This document shows, one piece after another, positions 30,796 to 60,477 of a stretch of 64,000 nucleotides of DNA. The notes beneath the pieces were generated by a model. That model was not told where the DNA came from. It searched no databases and worked only from the letters and a program-made list of their open reading frames with translations. Within the stretch, counting starts at the first letter, position 1. Every line of letters begins with the position of its first letter. Position numbers and translations under genes: made by a program. Source of the stretch: Candidatus Krumholzibacteriia bacterium. Lineage in GTDB: Bacteria > Krumholzibacteriota > Krumholzibacteriia > Krumholzibacteriales > Krumholzibacteriaceae. Where the stretch lies: NCBI GenBank assembly GCA_023131975.1, contig JAGLYV010000078.1, positions 3,712-67,711 of the forward strand. Direction: 5' to 3'.

Positions 30796-30880
30796 AGCTG
30801 AACTGTCCCGTCTCAGTTACCGACTAAACTTATGTCTTTAACCGTTAATCTATATGCCCCCTCCTTGTTAAAGACCTCTC

Positions 30881-32473: not shown

Positions 32474-32517
32474 TCTGATACCTGTCACCCATGATTACGC
32501 TCACAAAGGAGCCTGAA

Positions 32518-32973: not shown

Positions 32974-32989
32974 CAACGGTGGTTCACCG

Positions 32990-34627: not shown

Positions 34628-34884
34628 CGATCGATTCTCCTTTTTTCATGTTCAAGACCGGGGCAGTATAGCAATACTCCCGGCCAAACTCAAGCTTATA
34701 CCCGCTGATCAGCATATTTATCATTGTACGAAGAATCGATTAACGCTACTATGACTGTTCGTGGAGTGTAATTACCAAGTCCTTATCGCACTGGTCCCCG
34801 ACCGCTGATTCAACCAGGATCTTTGAGGACCAGCGACGATCGATCAGAGAATCAGATTTTCTCGCTCTCAGCAGGAGACAGGTG

Positions 34885-36803: not shown

Positions 36804-36830
36804 AAGATTTTTACGACACAGGTATCTCTC

Positions 36831-39184: not shown

Positions 39185-40015
39185 ATGAAAGTCTGTTTCT
39201 TTTCATCGCCCGCCGCATGATCGAGAACGGGATCAGGGTCTCTTTCATCACCGGTGACCACGGCCAGCCGGATGTGGAGATCTACGATGACATCGCTATA
39301 CCGCCACGGAATCCTCTCAGCAGACGCGATAATCGCCCAGACCGAAAAACAGCGTGGACTCCTTAAAGAAAATCTCGGTGTCGACTCGATTCTCATAAGA
39401 AACGGCATACCGCTGGCAACCGATATCGATCCACCCCTGCCGACTCATCCCTCTGATTTCTCTGGTTCCGGAGCCCGGACCCAACGACCGGGATTCCTCT
39501 GGGTAGGCAGCTTTAGAAGGAGAAAACGCCCCGAACTGTTTTTGGAGCTGGCTCGGAGGATACCTGACGCGTCTTTTACGATAATCGGTGGAGGTGGCGA
39601 CGATCCTGCCTACCACGAGGAGATCGTGAGAGAAATAGCCGCACTTGAGAATGTCGATTATCCGGGATTTATGAAACCGGGCGATATCGACCGTTACTAT
39701 TCAAAAGCGTACGCATACGTCAATACATCCACTCTCGAAGGGTTTCCGAACACCTATCTCCACTCCTGGAGATATGGTGTGCCTGTGCTGACCATCGAGA
39801 TAGATCCTGATTCCCTTATCGAGAATAACGGTATCGGCGCCTGCACCGGCGATCTGGAAGGCCTTGTATCCTCTGCCAGAAGATTGCTCGACGATCCTGA
39901 AGAGAGATCGTCCATGTCGTCAAGATCGATCGATTATGTCCGGAAAAATCACGATATCAGGGATAAGGCAGACCAATATATAACTCTATTCAACGACCTT
40001 CTCGATCGTTCCTGA
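39185..40015 (+). pseudogene. Frameshifted/truncated GT4 glycosyltransferase remnant
   Basis: A good SD (AACGGAGGCGAAGG) and ATG at 39185 give MKVCFFSSPAA, then a stop. Reading continues in two other frames. An intact GT4 C-terminal domain (FLWVGSFRRRKRPELF...TSTLEGFPNTYLHSWRYGVPVL) is preserved from 39254 onward. The N-terminal Rossmann half is only about 70 codons across three frames, against about 180 expected. Confidence 0.45.
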
Positions 40016-41209
40016 TAATTTTGAGATCATAATATCGAGTCGTTCTGGATATGTCTCTCCCGAGATGTGTTGTTCGGCCCACGCGCGTGCATTCTTCCCT
40101 GTAGCTTCCGCGAGTTTATGATCCAGAAGAAGGCTGCATGTCTTTTCAGCAAATTCTGCGGGGGAATCACCCCTGTGATATTCCCTTCCGTCAGTGAGTC
40201 CCATTCCCGATACGCCTTCACCGGTACTGACGACAGGTACTCCCATCGCCGCCGCCTCCAGCATCCTTATCCTGATCCCGCCAGCAAAGCGAAGCGGCAA
40301 TACCATCGCGGAACATTCTCCGAGTTCTTTTCTTATGTCCCTGACATAACCGGCAAAGACCACATTATCATGATCTCGCCCGGAAATATCTTCCGGTATC
40401 CCCTCTCCCACTACGCGCAATACGGTCCCGGGGCTTTTCTCCAATATGATCGGAAAGATATCATCGAGCATATATCTCAACGCGTCTTCATTGAAATCCG
40501 ATGAAAAATGTCCCAGGAACAACAGGGTTCCTCCCGGTCGATCGTGAATAACGGGGCTGAATTCATCCAGATCCATTGACACGGGAAGATCGATGATCGT
40601 CTTCCCGGCCAGATACGGCATCCCCCTCAGCGTATCAGCGTCCTTTTCCGTGACCGTTATTATGGCCGGGTACTCTCTGTACGCCAGTTTTTCTATCGAT
40701 TCTCTCATCCTGAATCCACGGCTCTTTTTTTGATCGGTCTTTCCTCCTCCACGGTTTTCTCGTGACACGAGATGATCCAGATCGTGAGTAAGAAGAGCGA
40801 CCCGGCGTCCAGCCAGCAGACCTGGAAGCCTGAAGAGATACCAGTAGTTCGCGATCACAAGATCCACATCTTCCGCTTCAGCTGTATCGCGTATCAGGCC
40901 GAGGAAAGGTTCGGGAGCAGCATAACTTACTTCCATGGGAATGGAATGAAAGATGGAGCTATATATATTTTTCAGTTTGTAGAATATTCTGTGAAAAAAT
41001 GATCTTCGGTGTGGGGCCACCATCGCCGCTATCTCGACAGACGGACGCCTGATCTCATCCAGCCTTTTAAGATCCTCCGTTGAAAGTGTCATAGTGGACA
41101 ATATGACTTCGTGTCTCGATGAAAGGCCATCGATCAGGTTCATTATCAACCTGCCCGTGCCTCTTTCAACAGGATAGGGGCTGTATGGCAATGCTATAAG
41201 TATCTTCAT
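39986..41209 (-). CDS. GT4 family glycosyltransferase
   Basis: 407 aa GT-B (..FLGHFSSDFNEDAL.., EAAAMGVPVVST). Confidence 0.8.
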   Translation of the reverse strand: MKILIALPYSPYPVERGTGRLIMNLIDGLSSRHEVILSTMTLSTEDLKRLDEIRRPSVEIAAMVAPHRRSFFHRIFYKLKNIYSSIFHSIPMEVSYAAPEPFLGLIRDTAEAEDVDLVIANYWYLFRLPGLLAGRRVALLTHDLDHLVSRENRGGGKTDQKKSRGFRMRESIEKLAYREYPAIITVTEKDADTLRGMPYLAGKTIIDLPVSMDLDEFSPVIHDRPGGTLLFLGHFSSDFNEDALRYMLDDIFPIILEKSPGTVLRVVGEGIPEDISGRDHDNVVFAGYVRDIRKELGECSAMVLPLRFAGGIRIRMLEAAAMGVPVVSTGEGVSGMGLTDGREYHRGDSPAEFAEKTCSLLLDHKLAEATGKNARAWAEQHISGETYPERLDIMISKLSGTIEKVVE

Positions 41210-42351
41210 CTCTTTGCCCCGTATTCCAGAATTTCATCATATACTGCTATTGTATCTGCCACAGATCTTTCAATCCTGAAACGGTCTTCAAATTCAACTC
41301 GTGCGTTGTTCCCCATTCGGGCAAGTAGATCCCTGTCCTCATAAAGTCTGTTTACGGTATCCGCGATCCCCTCTGGACGGGAATGATCGACCAGGAATCC
41401 GGTCCTGCCGTCTCCGACCAGTTCCGGTATCCCGAATATATTTGTGGCGACAACCGGGAGTCCGCCGGCAAAGGCCTCCATGATGACATACGGCGTAGCC
41501 TCCAGCAACGACGATACAACGAGAATATCGGCGGAATCGATGATTCCCGCAATGTCATCTCTGTACCCGGCGAAAATGACCCTGTCACTCAGCCCATACT
41601 CTGTCACCCTCTGTTCAAGCTCTCCCTTCATCTCCCCCTCGCCGATCAGGGCAAGGACTACTTTATCAGGAAGAAGCCTCATGGACTCAATGAGAGTATC
41701 CTGACCCTTTCTGCTTTCTATGGACCCGATCGAGACGAGTCTTAGATAGCCTTCATCGCGGTCGAACCCGTCGAATATATCGGAGGGATCCGGCCTCCCC
41801 GGGTCCGGGATGCCGTTGTAAACTACCCTTATCCTCGATTGTGAGATTTTGTGTTTGTCTGTCAGGTGTTTTATATTATCGGAACTGACCGTTATCACCC
41901 TGTCAATATGCCTGCTCCCGACCCCCTTGAGGATCCTCCCCTTCATAAATGAATCGACCATCGGAAGGTGTTCCGTTGAAACAATAGCCTTTACACCGGC
42001 GGCCCTTGCAACAGGAGCCACAAGGCTGTACCACGAATCAAAGGGGCCCGGAAGGTTCAGATGAAATACTTCCGGGGATATATCTTTAAGTACCTTGTAC
42101 AGAGAACTTGCTCCAACCACGGAAAAAATACTCTCCCACCTTATCCTGAAATGATCGATTCCCGAGTCCTTGAACCATCTACCAAGTCTTCCCTCTCCAC
42201 CACCGCCGCAACTTACCAGGGTAGGAGTATAACCTCTGCCGGCCAGATTTGACGCCAGGAGAAAAAGATACCTTTCAGCTCCCCCGGTGTATGAAGCATC
42301 GGAAAATAATACTACTCTCACTTTGTCAGATGATCCATTCACACTAAGCAT
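41206..42351 (-). CDS. GT4 family glycosyltransferase
   Basis: 381 aa GT-B (VVLFSDASYTGGAERYL N-domain; IMEAFAGGLPVVAT C-domain). Confidence 0.8.
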   Translation of the reverse strand: MLSVNGSSDKVRVVLFSDASYTGGAERYLFLLASNLAGRGYTPTLVSCGGGGEGRLGRWFKDSGIDHFRIRWESIFSVVGASSLYKVLKDISPEVFHLNLPGPFDSWYSLVAPVARAAGVKAIVSTEHLPMVDSFMKGRILKGVGSRHIDRVITVSSDNIKHLTDKHKISQSRIRVVYNGIPDPGRPDPSDIFDGFDRDEGYLRLVSIGSIESRKGQDTLIESMRLLPDKVVLALIGEGEMKGELEQRVTEYGLSDRVIFAGYRDDIAGIIDSADILVVSSLLEATPYVIMEAFAGGLPVVATNIFGIPELVGDGRTGFLVDHSRPEGIADTVNRLYEDRDLLARMGNNARVEFEDRFRIERSVADTIAVYDEILEYGAKR

Positions 42352-45009: not shown

Positions 45010-45051
45010 CCGAACTCCTGACCGCGTACCAACCCGAGCTTTTACTTTTGC

Positions 45052-45420
45052 CTAACTGTAAGTCTTGCTTACCAGAAATACACCGGCGCAGATTACAAGA
45101 ATACCCGCGAATCTCTGGACAGAAAACGGTTCGTTAAGCAGTACCGGAGCGAGAAGCGCAGTTATGACATATGAAAGACTGACCATCGGGAAAGCCCAAC
45201 TCAACTCAGCCCTGGAAAGTATCACTATCCAGAGTACGGCACTCACCGCGTATGAACAGAACCCGCCGATAACGAAGCCCGATGTGATGACCTTCATCGT
45301 GGTTCCCGCTATATTACTCAGATCCAGCTTCCCGATCTTGTTTATTCCGGCTTTCATCATAAACTGACCGGCAGTGTTCAGGCAGACAGTGGCAATTATA
45401 AGCAGGAGACTTTTAAACAT
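45052..45420 (-). CDS. Small 4-TM DMT/SMR-like protein, ArnE/ArnF-like lipid-linked sugar flippase subunit
   Basis: 122 aa and ArnE-like (AGQFMMKAG...; AFPMVSLSYVITALLAPVLLNEPFS). Confidence 0.55.
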   Translation of the reverse strand: MFKSLLLIIATVCLNTAGQFMMKAGINKIGKLDLSNIAGTTMKVITSGFVIGGFCSYAVSAVLWIVILSRAELSWAFPMVSLSYVITALLAPVLLNEPFSVQRFAGILVICAGVFLVSKTYS

Positions 45421-45460
45421 CTCTCTTCCTTTCCAGGTCAGAACAAAAAATGTCCGGAAA

Positions 45461-46141
45461 TCACTTCAACGGCTTAAAGCGAAGCTTCACAAGATAGAGA
45501 AGGTTCTCGAACCCGTCCTTCCACTTATCCAGCTTGACTTCCCCGACCCGCGGATGATAATTCACGTGATATTCGTCAAACTTTATCTCGGGATGACGAA
45601 TGGCATTTATCTTTATCTCCTCACTGAGGGGCATACCGTCACTCTCAAGCTGAAGCTTGGGATAGATCTCGCTCCTGTATATCCACATACCCGACTGCGA
45701 GTCGTTTATAGCCCTGAAAAAAAGAAGGAATGTGCCCGCGGTAAGAATCCAGTTCCCGAGCTTATTGGACAGATTCATGGCATCCTGGTTCTTCAGGGGA
45801 AACCTGGAGGCTGAGACGAAATCGAGTTCTTTATCGAGAAGGTGGTCGATGCATTCCTCGATCTGTTCGACAGCGTAAGTGCCGTCACCATCCATCGTGA
45901 CAGTGATGTCACCTGTGACCGATGGCAACCCGGCTTTGTATGCCGCTCCGTATCCTTTGCGCTTTTCAAATACTACTCTGGCTCCCAGCTTTTTCGCAAC
46001 CTCTGACGTCCTGTCTGTGGAATTGTTATCGACTACGACGATCTCATCCACGGATTCAGGCAACGAAGGGATGACCAGGGCCAGTCCCTCTTCTTCATTA
46101 AAACAGGGGATGACTACAGATATCTTTTTCCCACGATACAT
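45461..46141 (-). CDS. GT2 polyprenyl-phosphate sugar synthase (soluble DPM1/GtrB-like)
   Basis: KISVVIPCFNEEEGL, VVVDNNSTDRT and TMDGDGTY motifs. It has no C-terminal TM helices. Confidence 0.75.
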   Translation of the reverse strand: MYRGKKISVVIPCFNEEEGLALVIPSLPESVDEIVVVDNNSTDRTSEVAKKLGARVVFEKRKGYGAAYKAGLPSVTGDITVTMDGDGTYAVEQIEECIDHLLDKELDFVSASRFPLKNQDAMNLSNKLGNWILTAGTFLLFFRAINDSQSGMWIYRSEIYPKLQLESDGMPLSEEIKINAIRHPEIKFDEYHVNYHPRVGEVKLDKWKDGFENLLYLVKLRFKPLK

Positions 46142-46153: not shown

Positions 46154-47656
46154 TCAGAAAAGGGCTACAATCTTCTCCTTGAAAGGAACAGGGAGACTCA
46201 GTATCAATTCCTTCTCCCTGGGCCCCAAGACCTTCATAAACCGAAATCCGGCGAAAAGCAACACTACCCCGACAACCATCTGAACGGTGAGAGCCGGGAT
46301 CGAATCCCATTTCGACGCCGTTATTGCCAGACAGGCAACAGGAGCCGCCGCCGCGTAACACTTCAAAATAAAGCCGACAGGAGTTCGAATATCCTTCCGG
46401 AACTTCTTGACGGCAACATTAAAGACAACTACTTCCAGGACAAGAACAAGGACAACGGGAATAAAGGCTCCCCAGATGCCGTATCTTGGAATCAAAGCAA
46501 TATCCAGACCTATATTAATAATGGCCATCAAACCGAGTACAATCATGTTAACCCAGCTTTTTTCCATCACATACAGTGCCATACTCAGCGGAGTATAGAG
46601 AAATGAATATGAAAAGACAACGAAAAATAATTGTGTAAACTTTGCTGCTGGAAGCATTTCACTCCCAAAAAGTACTGGAACGAGAGGTCTGGCAAAAGCG
46701 AACCCCATTGCCGCAACCGGTATTACCAGAAGAAAAAGGAGTCTGAAATACAGGTCGATTGCCTCAGGAAGCCTTCCGGAATCCTTTGAATAGACTTCCG
46801 AAGTACCGGCCATAACGATGGGCCATATAGTCAGCGGCACAAATTCCAGGGCCATCTGTGGAATATCGTACGCCAGGCCAAAATATCCCGAAGCCTCCAT
46901 TCCGACCCACTTCCCAAGAAACAGGACTTCGGAATGCCTCCAGACGATCTGATTAAGGAAACCGGTCACTATGAATGGAAGAGAAAACTTCATCATCTGC
47001 GAGAATGCTGGCGGATCGCCCCCGCCCGCCGGACACGACTTTATGAGGCCCACAACCTGAGGAAGGAGTACGGCAGTCATGAGCAGATCGATAATAGCAC
47101 CTGCAAGCAGATAGCCGACAATCCCCATGCCAGCCCTAAGAAGTAACATCATAATAACAAGATAAGCAGCGTTACCAACAGCAATTACAATGCTGAGCAT
47201 CCTGGTCTCATACCAGGCCTGGAGGGTGTTGCTTATCATTGATATCCCGACTTTGAAGATCACTAACCCCACCGCGACCATCAGGTACAGGCTGAAATCA
47301 CCATCCTGAACCTTATATATGGCACTGATCCGGTCCCGGAAGATCCACGTCATCACCAGAACGACACACCACGAAACCATCTGTATTATAAAATATTTTT
47401 TGAGGTTACTTTTGAATCTGCCCATCCCCCCGCTGACCCTTATTCCCGGTAGATACTTGAGTACCGCGTTTCCGCCTCCGACCATTGCGATTATCAGGGC
47501 GAATCCGGCAAGCGTCTTCAGAACACTGAGCATGCCCCAGTTGTAACTCCCCAGAACCCTCACGACTATGACATAACTGATCGGGCCAGCAAGATAGCGC
47601 GCTACCCTGGCGAATATATTCCATGACATCGCTTTTCCCACTTTTTCATATGTCAT
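46154..47656 (-). CDS. wzx: Wzx-like oligosaccharide flippase (MOP/polysaccharide biosynthesis protein family)
   Basis: 500 aa with about 12 to 14 TM helices in a PST-family arrangement. Confidence 0.7.
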   Translation of the reverse strand: MTYEKVGKAMSWNIFARVARYLAGPISYVIVVRVLGSYNWGMLSVLKTLAGFALIIAMVGGGNAVLKYLPGIRVSGGMGRFKSNLKKYFIIQMVSWCVVLVMTWIFRDRISAIYKVQDGDFSLYLMVAVGLVIFKVGISMISNTLQAWYETRMLSIVIAVGNAAYLVIMMLLLRAGMGIVGYLLAGAIIDLLMTAVLLPQVVGLIKSCPAGGGDPPAFSQMMKFSLPFIVTGFLNQIVWRHSEVLFLGKWVGMEASGYFGLAYDIPQMALEFVPLTIWPIVMAGTSEVYSKDSGRLPEAIDLYFRLLFLLVIPVAAMGFAFARPLVPVLFGSEMLPAAKFTQLFFVVFSYSFLYTPLSMALYVMEKSWVNMIVLGLMAIINIGLDIALIPRYGIWGAFIPVVLVLVLEVVVFNVAVKKFRKDIRTPVGFILKCYAAAAPVACLAITASKWDSIPALTVQMVVGVVLLFAGFRFMKVLGPREKELILSLPVPFKEKIVALF

Positions 47657-47658: not shown

Positions 47659-48786
47659 TTATCCAACCTGCCCTGAGAAGGTTTTTATGAAAAATGGAGC
47701 TACATCCGTGATCTTCGACCCGCTGAACGCGACATCCCGATTTGTGAAAAGTGCGCTGAACATACTCTCTTCAGCGGGATGGTAACCATGCATCGCCGCG
47801 ACAGGCGTCTTTCCCATATAACTCGGTACAATAATATTACCTGCATCGAGCTGAAAGATTATGTCCCCGAATCGCCCGTCACTGAATTTAATCCCCATCA
47901 TGACGAGTTCGTCTTCTTTTAATATTCTCCCACGATCAGATCGGCAAAGAATCTCTCTTATCTTATCTCCAGCATGGAGGTCGTTGATCCTGAACCTTGC
48001 CATCGTAGAGTCGAAAAAAGGGATATAATCATCGGGGATCCTGAATCCGGCATCTTCTATCTCCGGGACAAGATCTATATGAGCGGTCACATCGCACATC
48101 CCATGGTCTCCCATAACTGCCAGCATCAGACCATTCTGTTTACAGAGCAGTCCTTCGATCCGTTTGCGGTACCACTCCAATTTCTCTTTTGTTTCAGTCG
48201 ATCCTGTTCCTGTCATGTGCATGACCGCGTCCAGGCCGGCCGTGTATAACAGATAAAAACCATTTCCTTCTTCTTTGAGAGCCACATTCAGTTCGTCAAA
48301 GGCTTTATCTTCCGGCGTCTCGTAGTCCCATACCTTTACATTTATCCCTGATTCGATGGCCCTGTCTAAGATCGTACTTCTTCCTCTTACACTTTCAGGC
48401 GCGAACAACCTCTTTCGGGCGGGAAGATCGAGGTACGGAAGTACCGTGCCGGGAACATCGTAAAGGTTATAGTAGGCCGACACTCCATCGAGACGCCTCA
48501 ACTTCCAGTTTACGAGACGCCTGACCCAGAGTCTGGACGTATCCGACATTCCGGGAACAGACCTGATGAATCTGAACGGGCCGTCATCATCCGCAAATGA
48601 ATACATCATCCACAATTCGTGTTCATCCGGATTTATTCCAGTCATGATCGAAGTCAATGCAGACTGACTGAACCCGGGTACCGTCTCAAGCCTGACCGCG
48701 TCCGACAACCCTTCAGGTCTGAAAGCATGCCTGCTGACAAGTTCGAATCCCAGAGCATCGATGATTATCAACACTTTCTTGCTCAT
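47659..48786 (-). CDS. Alkaline-phosphatase-superfamily enzyme (type I phosphodiesterase / nucleotide pyrophosphatase-like)
   Basis: Starts MSKKVLIIIDALGFELVS (metal-site Asp motif) and has a later MGDHGM motif. No signal peptide or TM is evident. Start chosen at the internal ATG, which avoids overlap with the upstream gene. Confidence 0.55.
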   Translation of the reverse strand: MSKKVLIIIDALGFELVSRHAFRPEGLSDAVRLETVPGFSQSALTSIMTGINPDEHELWMMYSFADDDGPFRFIRSVPGMSDTSRLWVRRLVNWKLRRLDGVSAYYNLYDVPGTVLPYLDLPARKRLFAPESVRGRSTILDRAIESGINVKVWDYETPEDKAFDELNVALKEEGNGFYLLYTAGLDAVMHMTGTGSTETKEKLEWYRKRIEGLLCKQNGLMLAVMGDHGMCDVTAHIDLVPEIEDAGFRIPDDYIPFFDSTMARFRINDLHAGDKIREILCRSDRGRILKEDELVMMGIKFSDGRFGDIIFQLDAGNIIVPSYMGKTPVAAMHGYHPAEESMFSALFTNRDVAFSGSKITDVAPFFIKTFSGQVG

Positions 48787-48799
48787 ATGATCACTTTTC

Positions 48800-50065
48800 T
48801 TATCTTCCAAATACAATTCTTGACCACCATCTGTGACACGACTCAGCTCCATCATTCCAATCTCCACCTGAATACGGAAAGCCCCCGGGCGGACTGACAT
48901 CGAGATTCCCTGTCCCATTTCTGGCCAGAACGGCTAGTAAGTGAAGCGACGCTGCTCTGACTATTCCAGCAGGAGTGCTGGAAAATAGCGCCCTCCCCAG
49001 AAATGCCGCGGTCCGAACCATATTCACTCTACCGATCCTGGCAGCAATCGGTTTCCAGGACCTCATCCAGTCTATTATCCCATGCCTGTCGGACCGGAAA
49101 ACGGCAACAGGCTGTAATCCTTTCCATGTCAATGGCACCCTGGCATCCTTGTCTAGAGCTGCCGCGCATTTTCCCCATACCTCGAGAATATCTTCAGCGC
49201 ATTCAAGATACATCTCCCTGAATTCACAATCCTGGACCTCGAGTATATCAAGGGAAGGATTAATCTTGAAGACACTCCATTTTCTCGTTTTCCTGACCAT
49301 AGCTTTCGTAATAAGGTTCCTGCAAGGGATCGAATCACATTTTTCATCGATAGATATCCATCTTTTCTGGTATCCGCTCACATACTCTTTCGAAACTATG
49401 AGTATGCCGGTCAGGATATCGGTATATACCCGCGCGATATTATAGAAAAAACCATAGATCTCATCTTCTCCTTCGGGATTATTCTCCGGCCAGCATGACA
49501 GAAGTGAGGCCATCCTGTTTTCAAGGAGAAGCAATCCCTCACTGACTTCGATATCACCCGTATTGAAAGAAGGCAGCATGTCGAGGATCATTTCTTTCCC
49601 GTATAGAATATGGCCGTGATTCTTCAGTACAAATACTCCGGGAGAAGGAGAAAAAGATCCCAGCTCATCAACATGAACAATGCCGACATCCACCCTTCCA
49701 AGAAAAGTCGCTTCTGGAATCAATCCCTCGCATGCCTCTCCCAGTTCTTTTCTGAGAGCAAGCGATTCAAGAAGCTTCTCCCTAGAATTCAGGACGACAA
49801 GCAGGTCTATATCCGAGAGAAAAATCGGGTTTCCACTCTCAAATGAAATAGTACCCTCTCCAAGGGCGAAACTTCCTCCCAGAATGATCGCCTCTGTATT
49901 ATCAAGTCCGATATTGTCGGAAAGAAGGGATCCGCATTCTCGAAGAAAACCATGAAAATGTTCGAGATACCAGGCAGACGCGGGATTGCCGGAATCTTTC
50001 TCATCCAGCCTGAAAAACCCGCATTCATTATACGGGTCGTTATCGTGATTATCTCTACCTGGCAA
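48800..50065 (-). CDS. Nucleotidyltransferase-fold protein (Pol-beta superfamily; LicD-like phosphotransferase or other NTase) with large C-terminal region
   Basis: ILGGSFALGEGTISFESGNPIFLSDIDLLVVL matches the hG[GS]x(9-13)[DS]hDh NTase signature. A downstream acidic residue lies in VGIVHVDEL. 421 aa. Its start abuts the BY-kinase stop. Confidence 0.45.
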   Translation of the reverse strand: MPGRDNHDNDPYNECGFFRLDEKDSGNPASAWYLEHFHGFLRECGSLLSDNIGLDNTEAIILGGSFALGEGTISFESGNPIFLSDIDLLVVLNSREKLLESLALRKELGEACEGLIPEATFLGRVDVGIVHVDELGSFSPSPGVFVLKNHGHILYGKEMILDMLPSFNTGDIEVSEGLLLLENRMASLLSCWPENNPEGEDEIYGFFYNIARVYTDILTGILIVSKEYVSGYQKRWISIDEKCDSIPCRNLITKAMVRKTRKWSVFKINPSLDILEVQDCEFREMYLECAEDILEVWGKCAAALDKDARVPLTWKGLQPVAVFRSDRHGIIDWMRSWKPIAARIGRVNMVRTAAFLGRALFSSTPAGIVRAASLHLLAVLARNGTGNLDVSPPGGFPYSGGDWNDGAESCHRWWSRIVFGR

Positions 50066-50830
50066 TTATACCCGCCTGTATATGAACTCGGGGATATAGT
50101 ATTTTTTCTTATTCAAAACAGAACCTATGAATTCTCCATCCAGCTTCTCGATCATAGTCATCGCTCTCTTTATTACTTCCCTCTTCGTCCTGCCCGCCTC
50201 GACGACTATAACAATGCCAGTAGAGAGTGCCCCGATGATCGGCGTCTCAGGAGCCTCAAGTATCGCTGATGTATCTATAAGCACATAGTCATAATGCTCC
50301 GCGACAGCATTGATAAAACTTTTCATCCGCTCGGAATTGAATAGCGGTTGGGTAATATCCGCGCTTCTTGTCGTCCCGATCGTGATAATATCCATCACAC
50401 CCTCGTCCAGGACAGTGATCACTTCTGAAAGTTCAGCTTCACCCGACAGCAGATCGAGAATACCTTTCTCATTGCTGACACCGAAGAGGTCATGAAGCTG
50501 CGGGTTGTTGACCGCGCAATCGATTATCAGTACCCTGTCCACTTCTCCCAGGGCCAGCACCCTGGCAAGATATGCGGAGATCATCGTCTTACCTTCACCC
50601 CCGACAGCACTCGTAAACATCACAACTCGCGAATCGCGGTTCTTGATCTCGGAATCGATGGCATTACGGAGGTTCAACAGTGATCTTCGAAAATCTTTGT
50701 CCAGCCCCTTCATGAAGCTGGTCTCACCCCTGCTGGATACACGTTTGGCGGGTTTCGGTCTCAACACTTTTCCCGAACCGGTCTTTTTTGCGGTCTCCGC
50801 TTTTCTCAGGGCATCGAATATCTTACTCAA
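50066..50830 (-). CDS. BY-kinase (CpsD/CapB/Wzc-C-domain-like tyrosine autokinase ATPase)
   Basis: Has Walker A FTSAVGGEGKT, Walker A' VLIIDCAV, Walker B DYVLIDTSAIL and a C-terminal Tyr-rich tail KKKYYIPEFIYRRV. Confidence 0.75.
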   Translation of the reverse strand: MSKIFDALRKAETAKKTGSGKVLRPKPAKRVSSRGETSFMKGLDKDFRRSLLNLRNAIDSEIKNRDSRVVMFTSAVGGEGKTMISAYLARVLALGEVDRVLIIDCAVNNPQLHDLFGVSNEKGILDLLSGEAELSEVITVLDEGVMDIITIGTTRSADITQPLFNSERMKSFINAVAEHYDYVLIDTSAILEAPETPIIGALSTGIVIVVEAGRTKREVIKRAMTMIEKLDGEFIGSVLNKKKYYIPEFIYRRV

Positions 50831-50858: not shown

Positions 50859-51704
50859 CTACATCGGCCCGTTCCTTCGATCCATCACCGGACTTTCCTT
50901 GCTTTCCAGATCCCGTATTCCCTCTCGTACGATCTTGCCGCTGATAGTCCTTGTGTTGGCCACATACCCAAGAAGAAGCACCCTGTCACACAACACATTG
51001 ATAAGCCTGGGCGTCCCGCCTGAATAATGGTAGATCTCCTCTAGAGCATCATCCGTAAAAACCGGCCCTCCGTTATTAACAGAGGCGATCTCCAGTCTGT
51101 ATTTGATATATTTAATGACGTCCTCTCGACTCAGCATGGGTATCCTGCATACCCCAGGTATCCTTTGACGCAGTTGCCGCAGTTCGTTGAGGTTGAGAAT
51201 ATTTTCGAGTTCCGGTTGACCGACAAGCATAATCTGGATCAACTTCCTATCACGAGTCTCAAGATTTGAAAGCATCCGCAATTCTTCCAGGACTTCGGGA
51301 GAAAGATTCTGTGCCTCATCGATTATCAGTACCGTATTCCTGTTGTTTTCATATTGGGAGATGAGAAAACGGTTCAGGGCCAGAAGCATCTGGGCCTTGT
51401 TCATATTTTCAGCGTCTATTCCAAAATCATTACAGATCAGGTACAGCAGCTGATCGAAAGGGAAAAGGGTGGAAAAAACAAAAGCCACCTCGAGCGAAGG
51501 CTGGAAAAGGTCGATAAACGCGTTCACTACCGTTGTCTTCCCTACGCCGACCTCACCGGTGACAGCGATGAATCCCTTTTTCTGGAATACCCCATAGGTA
51601 ATATACGCAAGCGCGTCCCTGTGGCTCTCGCTCCTGTACAGAAACCTGGGATCAGGAGTGACGTTGAATGGCAGTTCTTTGAATCCGTAATAATTTTCGT
51701 ACAT
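50859..51704 (-). CDS. ExeA/GspA-like AAA ATPase of the type associated with EPS/PEP-CTERM loci
   Basis: Has an N-terminal FxLxxxPF..PDPRFLY box, a Walker A GEVGVGKTT and Walker B LIIDEAQNL. Confidence 0.65.
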   Translation of the reverse strand: MYENYYGFKELPFNVTPDPRFLYRSESHRDALAYITYGVFQKKGFIAVTGEVGVGKTTVVNAFIDLFQPSLEVAFVFSTLFPFDQLLYLICNDFGIDAENMNKAQMLLALNRFLISQYENNRNTVLIIDEAQNLSPEVLEELRMLSNLETRDRKLIQIMLVGQPELENILNLNELRQLRQRIPGVCRIPMLSREDVIKYIKYRLEIASVNNGGPVFTDDALEEIYHYSGGTPRLINVLCDRVLLLGYVANTRTISGKIVREGIRDLESKESPVMDRRNGPM

Positions 51705-51709: not shown

Positions 51710-53074
51710 TTATTTACTGTCAAGGTCAGGGAAGCTTGAAAGCACCTGGAACCCCAGCGCATCCTCAGCTTCGTTTACATTCTTTATCGAGTGATCCAGA
51801 TTATCCATGAAAAAAGCGAACCCCAGCGCTATGATAAGGCTGAAAAGAGGTCCGAGTGCCATCCGGACATAATCCCTCGTCTTCTTCTGATAAGCCCTGG
51901 TCGCCGGAGCAAGGATCGTAATCGACCATTCGGGATTACTGGCCATATTGATCCTGGAATTCAGATGCTGTTCCTGGAGCAGATCGAGCCTTTCCTCCAG
52001 AATCTCAAGGGTCTTGTTTATCCGGTGAAGCTCGCCCTCCTTCTCCGGATAGGATATCTTTTCCCCGTCCATGACAGCCATGAGGTTGACCAGGTTCTCT
52101 TCACGGCTGGTCACGATATCGAGTCTCTTTTTCTGAATCTCTACAGAGGCCTGTATTTCAACCTCCATGTAGGAAAGCACGTCCTCTATCTGCCACCTCA
52201 CCGTTTTCATCTCCATATGATCATCGGTATATTTTACGGCGAGTTCCGATTCGCTAATTCTCAATTTGACCAACTGTTCCGTATACTGTTCAAGCTTGGA
52301 CTTTCTGTTCAGATCACCCGTAAGCACGCTGGTGATAGTAGCCATCTGTTCGACTCCGACCGACTCGAACTCCTCCAGATTTTCGATGATCCCCACCAGC
52401 TGTATCTTTTCGTCTCTCACCTCATCCAGATCGCTCCGATAACCTTCCAGCCTGGTCAAAGTGTTTCTCACCTGGGACTGAATGTCAACCAGGCCCCATT
52501 TCTTCTCCATCCTTGTTTTCCTCTCTCTCCAGTATTCGATATCGGTTTTTACCGAATTCATCTCGGAAGAGAAAAAATCCTCCATCTCGGGAGGAGTACG
52601 GACCATCTGATAATATTCCTTGTACGAGTTTATTATCGCATTGACCGAGGCTTCACAGAATACGGGATGAAGTCCCGAATATGAGACCCAGAGAACGTTC
52701 GAGGTAGCAATAACACCGGACTGGACCCTTTCAAAGTCTATTTTTTCTGAACTGGAATAACCCTCTGGGAGAAAATCAACGACAAGCTCCCTCGCACGAT
52801 CGATAACGACCTGGGATTTGACCATCTCGATCTGGGAAGATATCTCCTCTTCCCATGTCAGAGTCCGTACATTATTATTGAACACGCCACTCGCTTCCCC
52901 ACGCCTGACGAGCATTTTCCCTGTCGATTCGAATATGGCCGACTCTCTCAGATTCAGGCCGATGACAAGGGTCGTGGAAACAAGGACAACACCCAGAATA
53001 ATCCATTTTCTTCTGAAAATGACTTCGAGAAAATCCTTTATGGTCGATTCTTTCTGTACAGTTTTTTTTTCCAT
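51710..53074 (-). CDS. Polysaccharide co-polymerase / chain-length determinant (Wzz/GumC/EpsF-like PCP)
   Basis: Has an N-terminal TM (WIILGVVLVSTTLVIGL), a long coiled-coil periplasmic region and a C-terminal TM (LGPLFSLIIALGFAFFM). Confidence 0.75.
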   Translation of the reverse strand: MEKKTVQKESTIKDFLEVIFRRKWIILGVVLVSTTLVIGLNLRESAIFESTGKMLVRRGEASGVFNNNVRTLTWEEEISSQIEMVKSQVVIDRARELVVDFLPEGYSSSEKIDFERVQSGVIATSNVLWVSYSGLHPVFCEASVNAIINSYKEYYQMVRTPPEMEDFFSSEMNSVKTDIEYWRERKTRMEKKWGLVDIQSQVRNTLTRLEGYRSDLDEVRDEKIQLVGIIENLEEFESVGVEQMATITSVLTGDLNRKSKLEQYTEQLVKLRISESELAVKYTDDHMEMKTVRWQIEDVLSYMEVEIQASVEIQKKRLDIVTSREENLVNLMAVMDGEKISYPEKEGELHRINKTLEILEERLDLLQEQHLNSRINMASNPEWSITILAPATRAYQKKTRDYVRMALGPLFSLIIALGFAFFMDNLDHSIKNVNEAEDALGFQVLSSFPDLDSK

Positions 53075-53079: not shown

Positions 53080-53868
53080 TTATCTCGCCTGTCCAGATGA
53101 CTTATAGAAGTCATAAACGGCCTTTACGTTAGCAACATTCCATCCCTTCAGATAGACATCCATCGGCTTGAGAAGTATAGCTGAGAAACTCTCGATAAAA
53201 TCCTCCGTCGAAGCAAGTCTGGATTTGGGAACCATCACTATATCGAACGGCCTCATGGGTACATCCAGATCGTACCTGTTATCGTCGATTATTCTGTCTA
53301 CATCCACCTCGATACCGACTATGTGGTTCCAGTCCAATCTCCGTACGATAACAACACCATTCCTCTTCGCGCTGTCCCTGAGGCCGCTTCCCATCGCGAG
53401 AGCACTCATCAGAGTCAGTCCCTTCTGATACCTGTAACCTCCCGGATTACCGACTTGTCCCATCACATAGATCATCTGAGGTTCGAATTCACGTATTATA
53501 ACGGTAATTTCAGGGGCACGGAGAATCTCCGAGAACTTCATGGTCAACAGACTATCGACCTGAGAAACAGTCTTTCCAGCGACGACAACATCCCCGATGT
53601 AGGGATATGATATCCTTCCATCGGGCCTGACCTTGACGGCCTCTCTGGAATATTTTTCATTGTAGAAAAAATGCACATCTACTACGTCACCATAGCCGAT
53701 ATAGTACTCATCCATCCATGGTCCGGACGGGAGGCTATCAGCACTAAACGGCAGTTTTTCTACCTCCCCACCCCTGTTTACGACCAGCCGGTTTCCACCA
53801 CCGCACCCCGTACACAGGACAAGCAGAGCGCACAATACGGCACCAAATATAACCGCGGTATAGCGCAT
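53080..53868 (-). CDS. Wza/GumB/EpsE-like polysaccharide export lipoprotein (Poly_export + SLBB)
   Basis: Has a lipobox (AVLCALLVLCTGC), a PES-like motif region (YYIGYGDVVDVHFF) and an SLBB (IYVMGQVGNPGGYRY). Start chosen at the internal ATG that gives the signal peptide. Confidence 0.7.
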   Translation of the reverse strand: MRYTAVIFGAVLCALLVLCTGCGGGNRLVVNRGGEVEKLPFSADSLPSGPWMDEYYIGYGDVVDVHFFYNEKYSREAVKVRPDGRISYPYIGDVVVAGKTVSQVDSLLTMKFSEILRAPEITVIIREFEPQMIYVMGQVGNPGGYRYQKGLTLMSALAMGSGLRDSAKRNGVVIVRRLDWNHIVGIEVDVDRIIDDNRYDLDVPMRPFDIVMVPKSRLASTEDFIESFSAILLKPMDVYLKGWNVANVKAVYDFYKSSGQAR

Positions 53869-53988
53869 TTCACCTCTCATATCTCTAACCATGACACTCG
53901 ACCCTGCTGAATCTGTAAGTCGGCGCAAATCTACCTGTTTAGGTGTAATTTGTCAAACAAGAATTAGGGCAAGATACATGCCAGAACG

Positions 53989-54681
53989 TCAATAAGCCCC
54001 TTTCCTGGCGATTACGGCGGGGATTGTCCTGATGATGATCATCATGTCCGTCATGAGGCTCCGTTTCCTGATGTACTCCAAATCAAGCCGCATCCATTCC
54101 TGAAACCCGATATGGCTTCTACCTGATATCTGCCAGAAACACGTTATCCCTGGAATGACATCAAGCCGTTTCTTCTGCCAGGGCAGATAATGAGCCACTT
54201 CCGAAGGCAGGTTGGGCCGCGGCCCGACAATACTCATATCTCCTTTAATAACATTGAATAATTGGGGCAGCTCGTCGAGGCTTGACCTCCGGAGAAACCT
54301 TCCGACCCTTGTTACGCGCGGATCCTCTTTCAGCTTAAATATGGGGCCGTCGACTCCACTGAGTGGTCTCAGAACCCCGACTACATTCTCGGCGCCTGTG
54401 AACATCGATCGGAACTTGTAAAAATCGAATGATTTGCCATCCTTCCCGACTCTCTTCTGTTTGAAGAGGATATGTCCGGGAGAATCGAGTTTTATCAATA
54501 TTATTATCACGGGTATCACAGGCAGGAAAAAGATCAGGATAGCAATCGCAACAATCACATCGAATATCCTCTTTAAAACCACGAAGCTCAGACGATCATG
54601 AACATCGGGGATATCGACATGTGTGATCAAGGATCCCTCTGCTGTCTGTATTATCTCTTTCACCTCGGGAATTCCACTCAT
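53989..54681 (-). CDS. Initiating phosphoglycosyl transferase (bacterial sugar transferase; EpsL/WbaP C-domain-like)
   Basis: KFRSM...DPRVTRVGRFLRRSSLDELPQLFNVIKGDMSIVGPRP. Start placed at the ATG preceded by GGGAGGAAAA. Confidence 0.8.
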   Translation of the reverse strand: MSGIPEVKEIIQTAEGSLITHVDIPDVHDRLSFVVLKRIFDVIVAIAILIFFLPVIPVIIILIKLDSPGHILFKQKRVGKDGKSFDFYKFRSMFTGAENVVGVLRPLSGVDGPIFKLKEDPRVTRVGRFLRRSSLDELPQLFNVIKGDMSIVGPRPNLPSEVAHYLPWQKKRLDVIPGITCFWQISGRSHIGFQEWMRLDLEYIRKRSLMTDMMIIIRTIPAVIARKGAY

Positions 54682-55030
54682 TTTTCCTCCCAAAAAAACC
54701 CAGGCCACTTCCTTCAGCCCGGGTTTCAAGACACACAAAAACGCCTGCCATAGAAACTCACTTCAAACCATCAGGTTCCAGCACTGAAGTAAATATCTAT
54801 AGCAAACGTTTCCTCGTACACCTCCCTGTACTGAGAGAATACTATCACAAATCGCCTGATACTGTCAACACTTAATAAGAAAACATGATGGCGAGAAACC
54901 GGTTCATAAGCGAGGGCTCGCCCATAACATCTTTGTCTTGTAAACCTTTCTGACAACCGACATAATTACGACTCAAGTACTTTTGTGCCCAATACTTGCA
55001 TCTTTCCGCAGGATCTGAAAGGAACAGGCA

Positions 55031-58031: not shown

Positions 58032-59213
58032 TCACCAGGGCCTTATGGGTATCTTCGCCAGGATTTTCAGTATCAGTCGAGGAGGAGTCCACAGGTTCAA
58101 AATCTTTTCAAGACAGATCCTGCCCATGTCGTCCATCCGCATCTTAAGATGAGCCAATAAGGTACCTGATTCACACCCGGCACGTATTCGGGTATTTTTG
58201 TTCTTTCTACGCAATCCCGGCCAGTCCACCGACTGTTTTACATCCTCAATGGTGACTGGACGCGATTCGAGGCTGCTGCTGGAAAGGGTCAGAAGTTCCC
58301 TCCCCCTTTCACTGTGTACAATCACGAGAGAAAGACCTCCACCCACTTCACCGGAACGGACTATATTCCACGGATCAGCCACAGTGATATCCGCGCCCGC
58401 CCCCATGGGATTCGGGCAGAGCCTGCAAGCAGGCAGCGTCCAGAGACCTTTCCCGAAGGGAAGAGCCGCAGCATCGGCCCACTCAATCGTACGGTCCTCT
58501 ATCTCGATCTTGCCCGGCCACCCTTTCCCGCGGTACGACACCTTGCCCTCACCCTCACGGTCCAGTCCCATTCGTCCGCGCATAAAGCGCGTAAACCCCT
58601 CGTTTTTTTGCTGCTTGCAAAAAACTCCGATCATGATGAGATCATCGCGTTTTCCCCCGTAGAAATTGTCCAGAGCGATAAGTTGGCAATTAGTGCCCAC
58701 GACAATCAACTTCCCTTCGCGGGGCCGGGAAAACTCGAGGTTCTCCAGTACCGGGACCGGTCGATAGGTCGAGTTTGCAAAGTCTTCCACTCGAAACCCC
58801 CGGGAAACATATCCACCCTTCACCCATGGGAAAAAAGTATCGTCGACAAGGCAGTAAGCCTCATCAACGATACCGGTATTGAGGGCAGATTCGATAAGGG
58901 TACGGATCACTCCACCCGATGATGAGTTACGTCGCCGGTCCGGATCGGTCGAGTGGCTGAGCCATGAGGAAGCGATCGAAGTCCATGACATTTCCTTCCA
59001 GGGATTAGCTGACAGGAGAGGAACGGGACATATCCTGACGCAGAGACCACAGGATATACAGCTCGCTTCATCCCAGATTATCCTGAATCGGCCATCTTCG
59101 ATCCAGTCGCGCGAAAGAGCTCCCGATGCACATCCTGCGAGGCACGCGCCACACTGGCAACAGCGATCGACTTCGAAATGGATCTTATCATCCTTACCGT
59201 ACGAGATCATCAA
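58032..59213 (-). CDS. FrhB/FdhB-like Fe-S flavoprotein (pyruvyl-transferase-associated type)
   Basis: 2x[4Fe-4S] motifs (CCQCGACLAGC; CISCGLCVRICP) followed by an FrhB-like body. Overlaps the upstream pyruvyl transferase by 20 nt. Confidence 0.65.
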   Translation of the reverse strand: MMISYGKDDKIHFEVDRCCQCGACLAGCASGALSRDWIEDGRFRIIWDEASCISCGLCVRICPVPLLSANPWKEMSWTSIASSWLSHSTDPDRRRNSSSGGVIRTLIESALNTGIVDEAYCLVDDTFFPWVKGGYVSRGFRVEDFANSTYRPVPVLENLEFSRPREGKLIVVGTNCQLIALDNFYGGKRDDLIMIGVFCKQQKNEGFTRFMRGRMGLDREGEGKVSYRGKGWPGKIEIEDRTIEWADAAALPFGKGLWTLPACRLCPNPMGAGADITVADPWNIVRSGEVGGGLSLVIVHSERGRELLTLSSSSLESRPVTIEDVKQSVDWPGLRRKNKNTRIRAGCESGTLLAHLKMRMDDMGRICLEKILNLWTPPRLILKILAKIPIRPW

Positions 59214-60477
59214 GACGCTCCATAGACTGACGGACGTGGCTCTTTTTTTCTTCTATTACATTCGACAGGTGGTCTTTCCATCGTTGTCTTTCAAGCCACA
59301 TCCTGTCGAAAGCTCCCAGTGTCCACTCCGCGGTGAACTCCTCGATGTCGACCGAGAACTCCTCGAGCCCCAGTGACCTCATGTATTCGCGCACCTTAAA
59401 AAGGTAATTGACAGATATAGTCGGCACACAGGCGCCCGTTGAAAGGATGCAAGCGTGCATCCTGGTGGTGATGTTAAGGTCGGAGCAGGCTAGCATCCCT
59501 TTCAAAGCTGCTGGTGTAGGGAGCTGCTCTATGACCAGCACTTCCTTAGCAAGCTTCATCCTGCTGCGGATCTCCAGAGAGGTAGCCAAATCGTCCTCCC
59601 TGCAGCCATGGACCGGGTAGTTGGTCGGATAGAGGACAATTCTGACTCCGTATTCCGATATTAACGAATCGGCCAGCAAGGCCATCTCATCCAGATAGGA
59701 CTCGTAGTTGCTGAATTCGGTCTCGATCCTGTTCCGGAAATAACTCCAGCGCATCGCCGAGATTCCGACAATACTGTCGTTTTCATCCGCTCCGATAATC
59801 TGCAGTGCTTCTTCCCGCGGGATCCATTCCTGAAGAACAGCCATGTCGATAGTCTCGACAAGATTGGTGGCATCATCCCCTGTAAGTACGCGGGTCGCTT
59901 TCGTCGACTCTTCATCTCTCGTGTATATAAGGTCGACACTTTTCAGGACAGGCCTGGCAAGCCGCTTCGACCATCCAAAAATGAATGGACCGATCGTCGA
60001 CGGAAATATCACCATCTTTTTCCCCAGTTTCCGTACAAGGGAGAGAGTGTACAAGGAGAATACCACGTTTTTGAAGAACTTGTCGTTTATACGCTCAGCA
60101 CCAACACTTATCACCAGGTCAGCATCTATGAATGCAGCAAGTTTTCTGGCGAAGGGAACCTTTCCCCTGTCGATAGAGGATTGCGGGAGCACCGATACCG
60201 CCGTCATACAGACAGTCATCCAGAAGGATGTCTTTAAAAGCCAAAAAATCTGCTTGAGCCGAGCTTGAAGGAAGGGATATTCGAAGATGTCTTTTATTGT
60301 CTCGATTCCATAAAGGTCATGAAAAACTTTCGGAACATGAGCCATGACCTTTATCGTGCTTCCTGGAAAGCGTTCTCTCAGCAGCTTTATTGCGTTCTCC
60401 ACAAGCGCGCAGGAACCGACATTCGCGTCAGTGTATGCCTCGATAATCAAAATATTCAAAATCTCTTTATTATTCAT
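59194..60477 (-). CDS. Polysaccharide pyruvyl transferase (CsaB/WcaK family)
   Basis: 427 aa. The N-terminus NILIIEAYTDANVGSCALVENAIKLL is typical of PS_pyruv_trans. It is classically paired with an FrhB-like gene. Confidence 0.65.
   Translation of the reverse strand: MNNKEILNILIIEAYTDANVGSCALVENAIKLLRERFPGSTIKVMAHVPKVFHDLYGIETIKDIFEYPFLQARLKQIFWLLKTSFWMTVCMTAVSVLPQSSIDRGKVPFARKLAAFIDADLVISVGAERINDKFFKNVVFSLYTLSLVRKLGKKMVIFPSTIGPFIFGWSKRLARPVLKSVDLIYTRDEESTKATRVLTGDDATNLVETIDMAVLQEWIPREEALQIIGADENDSIVGISAMRWSYFRNRIETEFSNYESYLDEMALLADSLISEYGVRIVLYPTNYPVHGCREDDLATSLEIRSRMKLAKEVLVIEQLPTPAALKGMLACSDLNITTRMHACILSTGACVPTISVNYLFKVREYMRSLGLEEFSVDIEEFTAEWTLGAFDRMWLERQRWKDHLSNVIEEKKSHVRQSMERLDDLVR

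Follow-up and report, generated by a model that had tools for sequence, protein, structure and literature searches.

A nucleotidyltransferase-fold protein paired with an NPP-type phosphodiesterase in an exopolysaccharide export operon of a Candidatus Krumholzibacteriia bacterium

A stretch of 64,000 nucleotides from a Candidatus Krumholzibacteriia bacterium (assembly GCA_023131975.1, contig JAGLYV010000078.1, positions 3,712 to 67,711), hereafter the window, carries an exopolysaccharide (EPS) operon in which two adjacent genes encode a protein with a nucleotidyltransferase (NTase) fold and an alkaline-phosphatase-like (AP-like) phosphodiesterase of the nucleotide pyrophosphatase/phosphodiesterase (NPP) type. 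From sequence comparisons we conclude with good confidence that the two genes are inherited together, that they belong to the conserved export and control core of a type of EPS locus that is widespread, and that both proteins look catalytically competent and are cytoplasmic. By analogy with characterized relatives, what the two folds have in common chemically is that one would form and the other cleave a nucleotidyl phosphodiester at a hydroxyl. Our leading, still tentative, reading is that the pair would form a write/erase switch based on tyrosine nucleotidylylation, with the tail tyrosine Y251 of a degenerate bacterial tyrosine kinase (BY-kinase)-like protein as the acceptor. A reading in which the acceptor is the glycan itself ranks nearly level and is almost as likely.

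Both parent superfamilies, the Pol-beta NTases of MNT/ANT type and the NPP enzymes of PF01663, are known. Relative to the resources searched, what appears to be new is the pairing of NTase and NPP, the triad that they form with a BY-kinase-like protein devoid of its DxD motif, and the invariant FIYRR tail of that protein. Pfam, NCBIfam, PADLOC and the literature searched describe neither the NTase family nor the NTase-AP pairing. Literature searches also brought up nothing relevant on PEP-CTERM/exosortase systems that include an alkaline phosphatase or a nucleotidyltransferase, on the EPS of Krumholzibacteriota, or on AMPylation in connection with BY-kinases. As a preliminary description of this DNA had remarked, the pair is not part of the standard Wzx/Wzy toolkit.

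The two enzymes of the pair

Both genes lie on the minus strand where the preliminary description had placed them, with one refinement. The longest open reading frame (ORF) of the AP-like gene opens at 48918, and we take the ATG at 48786 (MSKK..) as the real start because homologues begin at that methionine. The NTase ORF starts with TTG at 50065, the sole in-frame start codon available, which has a Shine-Dalgarno-like AGGCGGG on its 5' side and is supported by the conservation of the N-terminal 35 residues in homologues. Hydrophobic segments and signal peptides are absent from both proteins, which are therefore predicted to be cytoplasmic. The tight gaps of 0-13 nt reported around the pair were confirmed: the NTase gene start abuts the TAA of the BY-kinase-like gene (0-nt gap), the AP-like gene starts 13 nt past the NTase stop, and a Wzx-like gene begins 2 nt beyond the AP-like stop. 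The features of the pair are as follows.

50065..48800, minus strand: NTase-fold protein, 421 aa, cytoplasmic
49805..49876, minus strand: NTase catalytic motif G64-S65 ... E70 ... S84-D85-I-D87, pattern hG[GS]x(n)[DE]h[DE]h
49876..49871, minus strand: G64-S65 of the NTase motif
49813..49811, minus strand: D85, metal ligand position of the NTase
49807..49805, minus strand: D87, metal ligand position of the NTase
49690..49688, minus strand: D126, third carboxylate of the NTase, on the next strand, at the start of predicted strand 125-131
48786..47659, minus strand: AP-like phosphodiesterase of NPP type (PF01663), 375 aa, cytoplasmic

The NTase signature noticed earlier, SDIDLLVV with a downstream acidic residue, is real and comprises G64-S65, E70, D85, D87 and D126, with a 19-residue beta-hairpin insert separating GS from DxD. 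A Pol-beta/MNT-like catalytic domain (approximately residues 40-170) is followed by an all-helical region (174-421). Among 144 representatives of the family, G64 is conserved in 99%, S65 in 87%, E70 in 99% and D85 in 100%, and position 87 is D or E in 100%; position 126 is D or E in 69%, and thus not in every member. Judged on the alignment, this conservation is far beyond that of a chance motif. The helical domain has conserved residues of its own, at 85-99% in the same representatives (N183, R184, Y208, D216, Y228, Y232, R235, K267, W297, W337 and P365).

Curated models barely recognize the protein. The preliminary description had named several profiles to be run: PF01909 remained below threshold for the NTase (15.8 bits, cutoff 21), PF04991 and SMODS gave no match, and PF01663 matched the AP-like protein at 50.1 bits. 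The Pfam matches to the NTase, NTP_transf_2 at E 0.019 and Polbeta at E 0.046 (PF18765 14.3 bits, cutoff 26.9), were all sub-threshold, NCBIfam and PADLOC gave none, and a search of the PDB with the NTase profile returned a single spurious designed-helix match. Forty-three distant members, searched as an alignment, and ten single members gave only weak NTP_transf_2/DUF294/Polbeta matches, and models of the NTP_transf_2 type reached E<0.05 in just 4 of the 43. The family is nevertheless sizeable. An exhaustive search of 1.84 billion representatives with a profile of 11 close homologues found 2,025 clusters at E<1e-3, of which 999 also pass E<1e-10. Their members are almost without exception about 400 aa long, and their number corresponds to a family of approximately 2,000 clusters at 50% identity; a word-indexed homologue search under-reports it badly, with 11 and 19 matches vs 2,025. 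The NTase family is large and without a curated model.

Our structural statements are based on AlphaFold2 models. The NTase model is confident (pLDDT 79.9, pTM 0.83) and places ten helices after an alpha/beta NTase core (approximately residues 57-156), so that the Pol-beta-like N-terminus predicted earlier is borne out by the model. In structure comparison the top value was that of ANT(3'')(9), 12.8 over 210 aligned residues, followed by AAD(9) (10.7), ANT(4') (9.1), two MNT antitoxins (9.0 and 8.5), KNTase (8.8), the DrrA AMPylation domain (8.1), HalB (8.0), LinB (7.4) and GlnE (6.5); HEPN domains match parts of the helical region at about 6. The best Foldseek matches were HalB and an NTase-like structural-genomics protein. 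The closest folds (ANT, MNT, DrrA, HalB, LinB and GlnE) all catalyze nucleotidyl transfer onto a hydroxyl. On motif, third carboxylate and predicted fold the protein is a member of the Pol-beta-fold NTase superfamily (NTP_transf_2/MNT/ANT), below the threshold of the curated profiles, and the model presents it as an active-looking O-nucleotidyltransferase of MNT/ANT type whose C-terminus is extended by additional helices.

The resemblance to the resistance enzymes ANT(3'')(9)/AadA, AAD(9) (PDB 7uy4, 6sxj), ANT(4')/KNTase and LinB extends to the order of a Pol-beta domain and a helical substrate- and nucleotide-binding domain, to the GS...SDIDLLV motif and to the third carboxylate on the next strand. 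Identity to these enzymes is only 12-15%, with no sequence-level relationship beyond SDIDLLV; an hhalign comparison of the NTase family with an AadA sequence, which is not evidence of membership, aligned the SDIDLLV motif alone (probability 6.9%). Unlike them, the window NTase has about 170 extra C-terminal helical residues and the 19-residue hairpin, and it is encoded in an EPS operon rather than by a resistance gene. The MNT antitoxins (PDB 5yep, 8xeh, 7ae2) share the GSxxRGE...SDxDL catalytic core. Antitoxins of the HEPN-MNT modules AMPylate a tyrosine of their HEPN partner, a precedent for tyrosine nucleotidylylation by an NTase fold. The window protein is three to four times larger than these antitoxins and does not stand in a toxin-antitoxin or defence context.

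The preliminary description had favored a LicD/fukutin-like enzyme that transfers a phospho-alcohol (phosphocholine, glycerol phosphate or ribitol phosphate) from a CDP donor, with the AP-family enzyme editing the substituent. An NTase-type fold with acidic metal ligands is common to LicD/fukutin/FKRP and the window NTase, and the setting within a glycan locus is also shared. The match to PF04991 is not: it is absent at E 0.1 for the window protein and at E 0.05 for the 43 distant members. LicD, FKRP and fukutin structures are absent from both lists of structural matches to the NTase, the motif is GSxxxGE...SDxD[LF], the type found in MNT/ANT nucleotidyltransferases, and no LicC/TarD/TarI-like gene for CDP-alcohol synthesis was found in the operon. 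The sole nucleotidylyltransferase near the operon is an ordinary sugar-1-phosphate NTP_transferase (33899..34627). We therefore abandon this proposal as very unlikely.

The AP-like protein is better covered by known models. It matches PF01663 over profile positions 2-341 of 342 (cutoff 23 bits, E 3.9e-13), and its family profile, which is needed since the single sequence found no match in the PDB, matches Xanthomonas NPP at E 5.5e-9. The motifs IIIDALGF (D10) and MGDHGM (D227, H228) are present as quoted in the preliminary description and invariant in homologues, as are all six metal ligands (D10, D186, H190, D227, H228 and H333) among 22-25 aligned homologues. The nucleophile S40 aligns with T90 of Xanthomonas NPP (Xac NPP), serine taking the place of threonine, and the family has its own invariant motifs LWMMY (58-62) and DSTMARF (259-265). 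In structure comparison ENPP4 (29.0), ENPP6 (28.9), ENPP7 (28.3), Xac NPP (27.4) and PhnA (26.0) stand above PafA/PhoK (21), sulfatases and pEtN-transferases (17 or less) and iPGM (16). By its predicted fold the protein is nearest to the NPPs within the AP superfamily, and by both profile and fold it is of NPP type. Identity as an iPGM/apgM enzyme of central metabolism, which the preliminary description had raised as a way in which its proposal might fail, is rejected, as iPGM is the closest relative on neither measure. Compared with the NPP family (PF01663: Xanthomonas NPP, ENPP4/6/7; PhnA), the window protein shares the above-threshold Pfam match, the six metal ligands and the nucleophile position, and differs in being cytoplasmic, in its serine nucleophile, in Met61 and Gln41, in LWMMY and DSTMARF, and in having an NTase as its near-obligate neighbor. 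NPP enzymes split 5'-nucleotidyl phosphodiesters, and venom NPP takes AMP off tyrosine-adenylylated glutamine synthetase.

A housekeeping role may be considered here, in which the NPP-type enzyme would act as a pyrophosphatase on nucleotide sugars or polyprenyl diphosphates and thereby limit or recycle intermediates, a role like that of the Nudix enzyme WcaH/Gmm in colanic-acid loci, with the NTase-like protein as its regulatory or scaffold subunit. In its favor, nucleotide pyrophosphatase activity is typical of NPP enzymes, the AP-like protein is cytoplasmic and well conserved, far more so than the NTase, which overall is poorly conserved, and one distinct AP-like subfamily is found apart from any NTase. 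The catalytic residues of the NTase, at 87-100% conservation in the 144 representatives (69% for D/E at position 126), argue instead for an active enzyme rather than a scaffold, and the AP-like protein has other residues where canonical NPPs bind the nucleotide. We regard this role as improbable.

Conservation of the pair in polysaccharide loci

The complete genome CP070727.1 (L001) has the identical 13-gene order, with an NTase homologue 34% identical to that of the window, and a CP070727.1-like order is kept in six Krumholzibacteriota-type loci from metagenome-assembled genomes, the only six found by a scan of genome contigs. Eleven independent distant NTase homologues (about 95-160 bits) were then sampled. 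An AP-like gene lies immediately downstream in six of them (L008, L009, L012, L013, L018 and L019), and the order AP-GT4-NTase, with an intervening gene of glycosyltransferase (GT) family 4, occurs in another two (L011 and L020), which places the AP-like gene adjacent or one gene away in 8 of the 11. Two more are in glycan loci without an AP-like gene on the available contig, one beside the exosortase genes EpsH/EpsI (L014) and one between GT4 genes (L017). The last, an orphan of 418 aa (P0283; L015/L016, 10001-11257), lies in a transposase-rich chromosomal region without glycan genes or an AP-like partner, and the NTase family is therefore not exclusively EPS-associated. The neighbors of this orphan encode an RNase H, an S15 peptidase and LexA.

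The reciprocal test was anchored on AP-like homologues of 30-50% identity in 80 metagenome loci, 63 of which had enough flank. In 52 of these 63 the NTase gene immediately precedes the AP-like gene on the same strand; it lies within one gene downstream in 3 and about 5 kb downstream in 2. The remaining 6 have no NTase, and all six belong to an AP-like subfamily marked by GYSSTCDP, with other neighbors. The co-occurrence asked after in the preliminary description is thus found, in a sample that is skewed to relatives of the window AP-like protein and includes near-duplicate contigs (L028/L030, L090/L093); most of the loci are metagenome contigs. The second AP-like subfamily (L054, L057, L061, L071, L076 and L082) has GYSSTCDP/GFTNTC in the nucleophile region and retains the same DSTMARF and MHGYHP motifs; it is without an NTase partner and is accompanied by genes for a STAS-domain protein, response regulators and GT4 enzymes.

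The gene order met most frequently is PolyExport-PCP-(ATPase)-BYK-like-NTase-AP-(Wzx)-GT2, where PCP is a polysaccharide co-polymerase, BYK-like the BY-kinase-like protein and GT2 a family 2 glycosyltransferase. The NTases of this arrangement, which we call class A, form one deep clade in which the order BYK-like, NTase, AP is kept even though pairwise identity has a median of 24% and a minimum of 14%. The close packing of the window, with its 0-nt and 13-nt gaps, is also kept in homologous loci. In class B (L011, L020, L090/L093, L008, L009, L040, L053, L095 and others) the pair lies among glycosyltransferases.

All NTase-AP pairs found are in polysaccharide loci, and none is in a defence island. 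A defence or toxin-antitoxin module, a context that the preliminary description had said would undermine its proposal, is accordingly rejected for the pair, which also lacks a PADLOC match to either protein. No homologue of either protein was found in the plasmid collection.

These contexts also bear on a signaling role, in which the NTase would tune export by making a nucleotide-derived signal (an oligonucleotide, linear or cyclic, or else a nucleotidylated metabolite) and the NPP-type enzyme would degrade that signal. A gene pair of synthase and hydrolase is a common signaling layout, and the orphan homologue in its non-EPS context fits a generic chemistry. No receptor or effector domain is evident, however, there is no PADLOC or SMODS/CD-NTase-type match, the likeness of the NTase to HalB is weak (TM 0.25-0.44), and strict embedding among structural EPS genes is unusual for a signaling pair. 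Such a role seems quite unlikely.

The kinase-like neighbor and the acceptor of the nucleotidyl group

The gene directly upstream of the NTase (50830..50066) had been called a BY-kinase. It does encode a BY-kinase-like P-loop protein with an intact Walker A motif (GGEGKT, K81), but a divergent one: it reaches 121.2 bits against the TIGR03018 cutoff of 230.65 and 99.8 bits against the TIGR01007 cutoff of 108.05, and its DxD motif (Walker A'), which in BY-kinases lies about 20 residues behind Walker A, is degenerate (D104-C105-A106). The same degeneracy is found in all class-A orthologues except that of L047 (VDADID), and the Walker A lysine, kept in the clade of the window, is replaced by T, S, V or A in about 25 of the 39 orthologues adjoining an NTase. 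In the BY-kinase CapB both motifs are catalytic, the K55M substitution of the Walker A lysine being inactive and the DxD aspartates organizing the Mg site, and a tyrosine cluster with a cognate phosphatase completes the system (PMC2422856). The BY-kinase-like proteins of these loci constitute a distinct subfamily, and may be pseudokinases.

What these proteins have kept is their C-terminal tail. The motif IPxF[IL]Y[RK]R[VIL], with one conserved tyrosine, is invariant in class A, and a tail of the form P.F[ILV]Y[RK][RY]x-stop occurs on the gene ending just upstream in 37 of the 61 NTase loci with upstream sequence. In the window it reads IPEFIYRRV and holds the single family-invariant tyrosine, Y251 (50080..50078, minus strand). 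The longer tail KKYYIPEFIYRRV has three tyrosines, of which only Y251 is conserved; the remaining tyrosines, including those of KKYY in the window, vary among orthologues, many of which have just one tyrosine in the tail. The window ORFs scanned and the gene tables of the loci contain no phosphatase of the low-molecular-weight protein tyrosine phosphatase (LMW-PTP) or PHP type.

The preliminary description had offered, as its second option, a nucleotidylation-based module acting on the kinase/PCP machinery. The conserved order BYK-like, NTase, AP and the degenerate kinase motifs speak for that option, which keeps the standing of a proposal. In the form that we prefer, the NTase would use a nucleoside triphosphate and two Mg2+ ions (at D85, D87 and D126) to transfer a nucleoside monophosphate (NMP) to a hydroxyl, and the NPP-type phosphodiesterase, with S40 as its nucleophile and two metal ions, would hydrolyze the same nucleotidyl phosphodiester. 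In the clade of the window the likeliest acceptor would be Y251 in the IPxF[IL]Y[RK]R tail of the upstream protein. Reversible nucleotidylylation of this tyrosine would replace or supplement the cycle of autophosphorylation and dephosphorylation by Wzb that ordinarily drives the PCP/BY-kinase. Activity, nucleotide and acceptor are inferred here, as is the direction in which the phosphodiesterase would work. It is possible, though somewhat doubtful, that a so far unrecognized post-translational switch operates in the polysaccharide export of this large group of mostly uncultured bacteria, in which the BY-kinase-like subunit has lost its autokinase chemistry altogether and that the NTase reversibly nucleotidylylates (for instance AMPylates) the single tail tyrosine, with removal by the NPP-type enzyme, in a nucleotidyl analogue of the Wzc/Wzb cycle.

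A tyrosine switch would explain why the gene order is fixed, why one tyrosine is retained where kinase motifs have been lost, why no phosphatase was seen, and why tyrosine AMPylators are among the fold neighbors of the NTase. The pairing and tight packing of the two genes also count in its favor, as does the NPP type of the partner with its invariant metal ligands and nucleophile. As in the BY-kinase/Wzb (CapB/CapC) cycle, the PCP is succeeded by a CapB-like P-loop protein, encoded separately, whose tail bears tyrosine, and two further enzymes that could add and remove a phospho-ester occupy the operon position of kinase and phosphatase. The window-type system differs in that DxD is lost and the Walker A lysine is gone in most relatives, in its one invariant tyrosine within a fixed motif in place of a variable cluster, and in the absence of an LMW-PTP or PHP enzyme from the loci seen. 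The putative writer and eraser would here be an NTase and an NPP phosphodiesterase, unlike the kinase and phosphatase of the known cycle.

Several observations weigh against this switch. Class A is monophyletic, and its 37 loci therefore represent one ancient arrangement and not 37 independent events. In class B the pair sits among glycosyltransferases, often in the order AP-GT4-NTase and distant from any kinase. The only canonical kinase in the sample, that of L011 (GPGEGKT, VDADLRRP, tail RYYQYYTA with a tyrosine cluster), stands in a locus in which the NTase and AP-like genes do not adjoin the kinase gene. With 33-36% identity vs 43-84% for the others, the NTase diverges more than any other protein of the operon, and such fast evolution is odd for an enzyme that would recognize an invariant peptide. 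The conserved residues of the helical domain are identical in the two classes, which speaks for one acceptor in both and against a tail peculiar to one class. A residue comparison of class-A and class-B NTases found just 5 weak class-A-specific positions, an indecisive outcome. Structurally, the NTase comes closest to nucleotidyltransferases that act on sugar hydroxyls (of aminoglycosides), not to protein AMPylators. Finally, alignment with Xac NPP replaces Asn111 by Met61 and Phe91 by Gln41, both invariant in the close AP-like family; we take Asn111 to be a phosphoryl contact of NPP and Phe91 to stack on the base.

Much of this evidence would suit an acceptor on the glycan. The NTase would then nucleotidylylate, in the manner of ANT enzymes, a sugar hydroxyl on the repeat unit linked to undecaprenyl diphosphate or on a precursor, and the NPP-type enzyme would resolve the diester by removing the nucleoside to leave a sugar phosphate ('cover/uncover'), by passing the phospho-sugar to another hydroxyl, or by taking off the NMP as a form of proof-reading. 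The confinement of the pairs to polysaccharide loci fits this account, as does their company: the class-B pair brackets a GT4 gene and lies among GT2, Wzy, deacetylase and FemAB-like genes, and the class-A pair is followed by Wzx or a polyprenyl-phosphate-hexose-synthase-like GT2. Rapid evolution is seen in glycan-specific enzymes, the residues of the NTase substrate domain are common to both classes, and the sugar-modifying ANTs provide the best structural match. On the other side, the class-A pair travels with an invariant export core (PolyExport-PCP-BYK-like) while the glycosyltransferases vary, the phosphodiesterase is conserved much more than the NTase, and the orphan NTase lies outside glycan loci. 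We also know of no nucleotidylylated bacterial polysaccharide, nor of one phosphorylated in an NTase-dependent way. A glycan acceptor is, in our judgment, possible rather than probable.

Genomic setting and implications

The pair lies within a single packed operon, and every gene of the region is on the minus strand.

54738..53989, minus strand: priming sugar transferase
53928..53080, minus strand: Poly_export/SLBB protein, export core, 5' of the pair
53074..51710, minus strand: PCP/Wzz-like chain-length protein, export core, 5' of the pair
51704..50859, minus strand: ExeA-like XrtA/PEP-CTERM-associated ATPase (TIGR03015, 321 bits, cutoff 324.5)
50830..50066, minus strand: BY-kinase-like P-loop protein, 254 aa, directly 5' of the NTase gene
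47656..46154, minus strand: Wzx-like flippase
46141..45461, minus strand: polyprenyl-phosphate-hexose-synthase-like GT2
45420..45052, minus strand: ArnE/F-like membrane protein, 122 aa
45009..42361, minus strand: polytopic membrane protein, 882 aa, without a Pfam or NCBIfam match
42351..41206 and 41209..39986, minus strand: two GT4 genes

The export protein, the kinase and the PCP match models of the XrtA system, all below cutoff, and the TIGR03015 ATPase is just under; the window ORFs scanned included no exosortase. The GT2 protein (46141..45461), akin to polyprenyl- and dolichyl-phosphate hexose synthases, the ArnE/ArnF-like protein and the 882-aa protein resemble a three-component periplasmic glycosylation module of lipid-P-sugar synthase, flippase and GT-C-type transferase. 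This trio (42361-46141, minus strand) is syntenic in L001, L004, L007 and L018, and the 882-aa protein, at 35-41% identity, evolves almost as fast as the NTase.

Adjoining the EPS operon and divergent from it is a gene (56286-58007, plus strand) for a 573-aa fusion, an unusual domain combination, of an adenylate-forming PaaK/F390-synthetase-like ligase and a C-terminal PanD-type aspartate 1-decarboxylase (PF02261 E 2.8e-25; TIGR00223 72 bits). A protein of the GSU2086 family (63017-63964, minus strand; NF052581, 388 bits; weak ArgZ-like Rossmann match) recurs at the edges of these EPS loci, in L012 (1506-2480) and L019 (2249-3229) adjoining a DUF3108 protein. Two FrhB/FdhB-like proteins (F420 hydrogenase beta-like, 4Fe-4S) are encoded at 58032-60477 and 17410-18711 (minus strand), and the gene for one is directly coupled to that of a polysaccharide pyruvyl transferase (59194..60477), a pairing that is recurrent in EPS loci. 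Between the two glycan regions lies a trehalose cluster (34882-39109, plus strand), which begins with the gene for a DUF5752 protein (E 7.6e-82) and continues with those for a TreT-like synthase, a trehalose-phosphatase and a GT20 trehalose-6-phosphate synthase. The second glycan region (17410-33853) has another Bac_transf priming enzyme (30795..30058), together with DegT aminotransferase, GFO/IDH oxidoreductase, hexapeptide acyltransferase, radical-SAM/SPASM, LPG_synthase_TM and RmlC/RmlD-like genes, and the window therefore carries at least two polysaccharide pathways.

The class of EPS loci that carries the pair is widespread in the environment and includes loci of the exosortase type, and the place of the pair in its conserved core suggests that models of Wzx/Wzy/PCP-dependent assembly lack a step. 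If the tail tyrosine is the target, tyrosine nucleotidylylation would join phosphorylation as a means of controlling polymer export, and would explain how such systems work without kinase motifs or a phosphatase. If the glycan is the target, the pair would represent a new route to phosphodiester or phosphate substituents.

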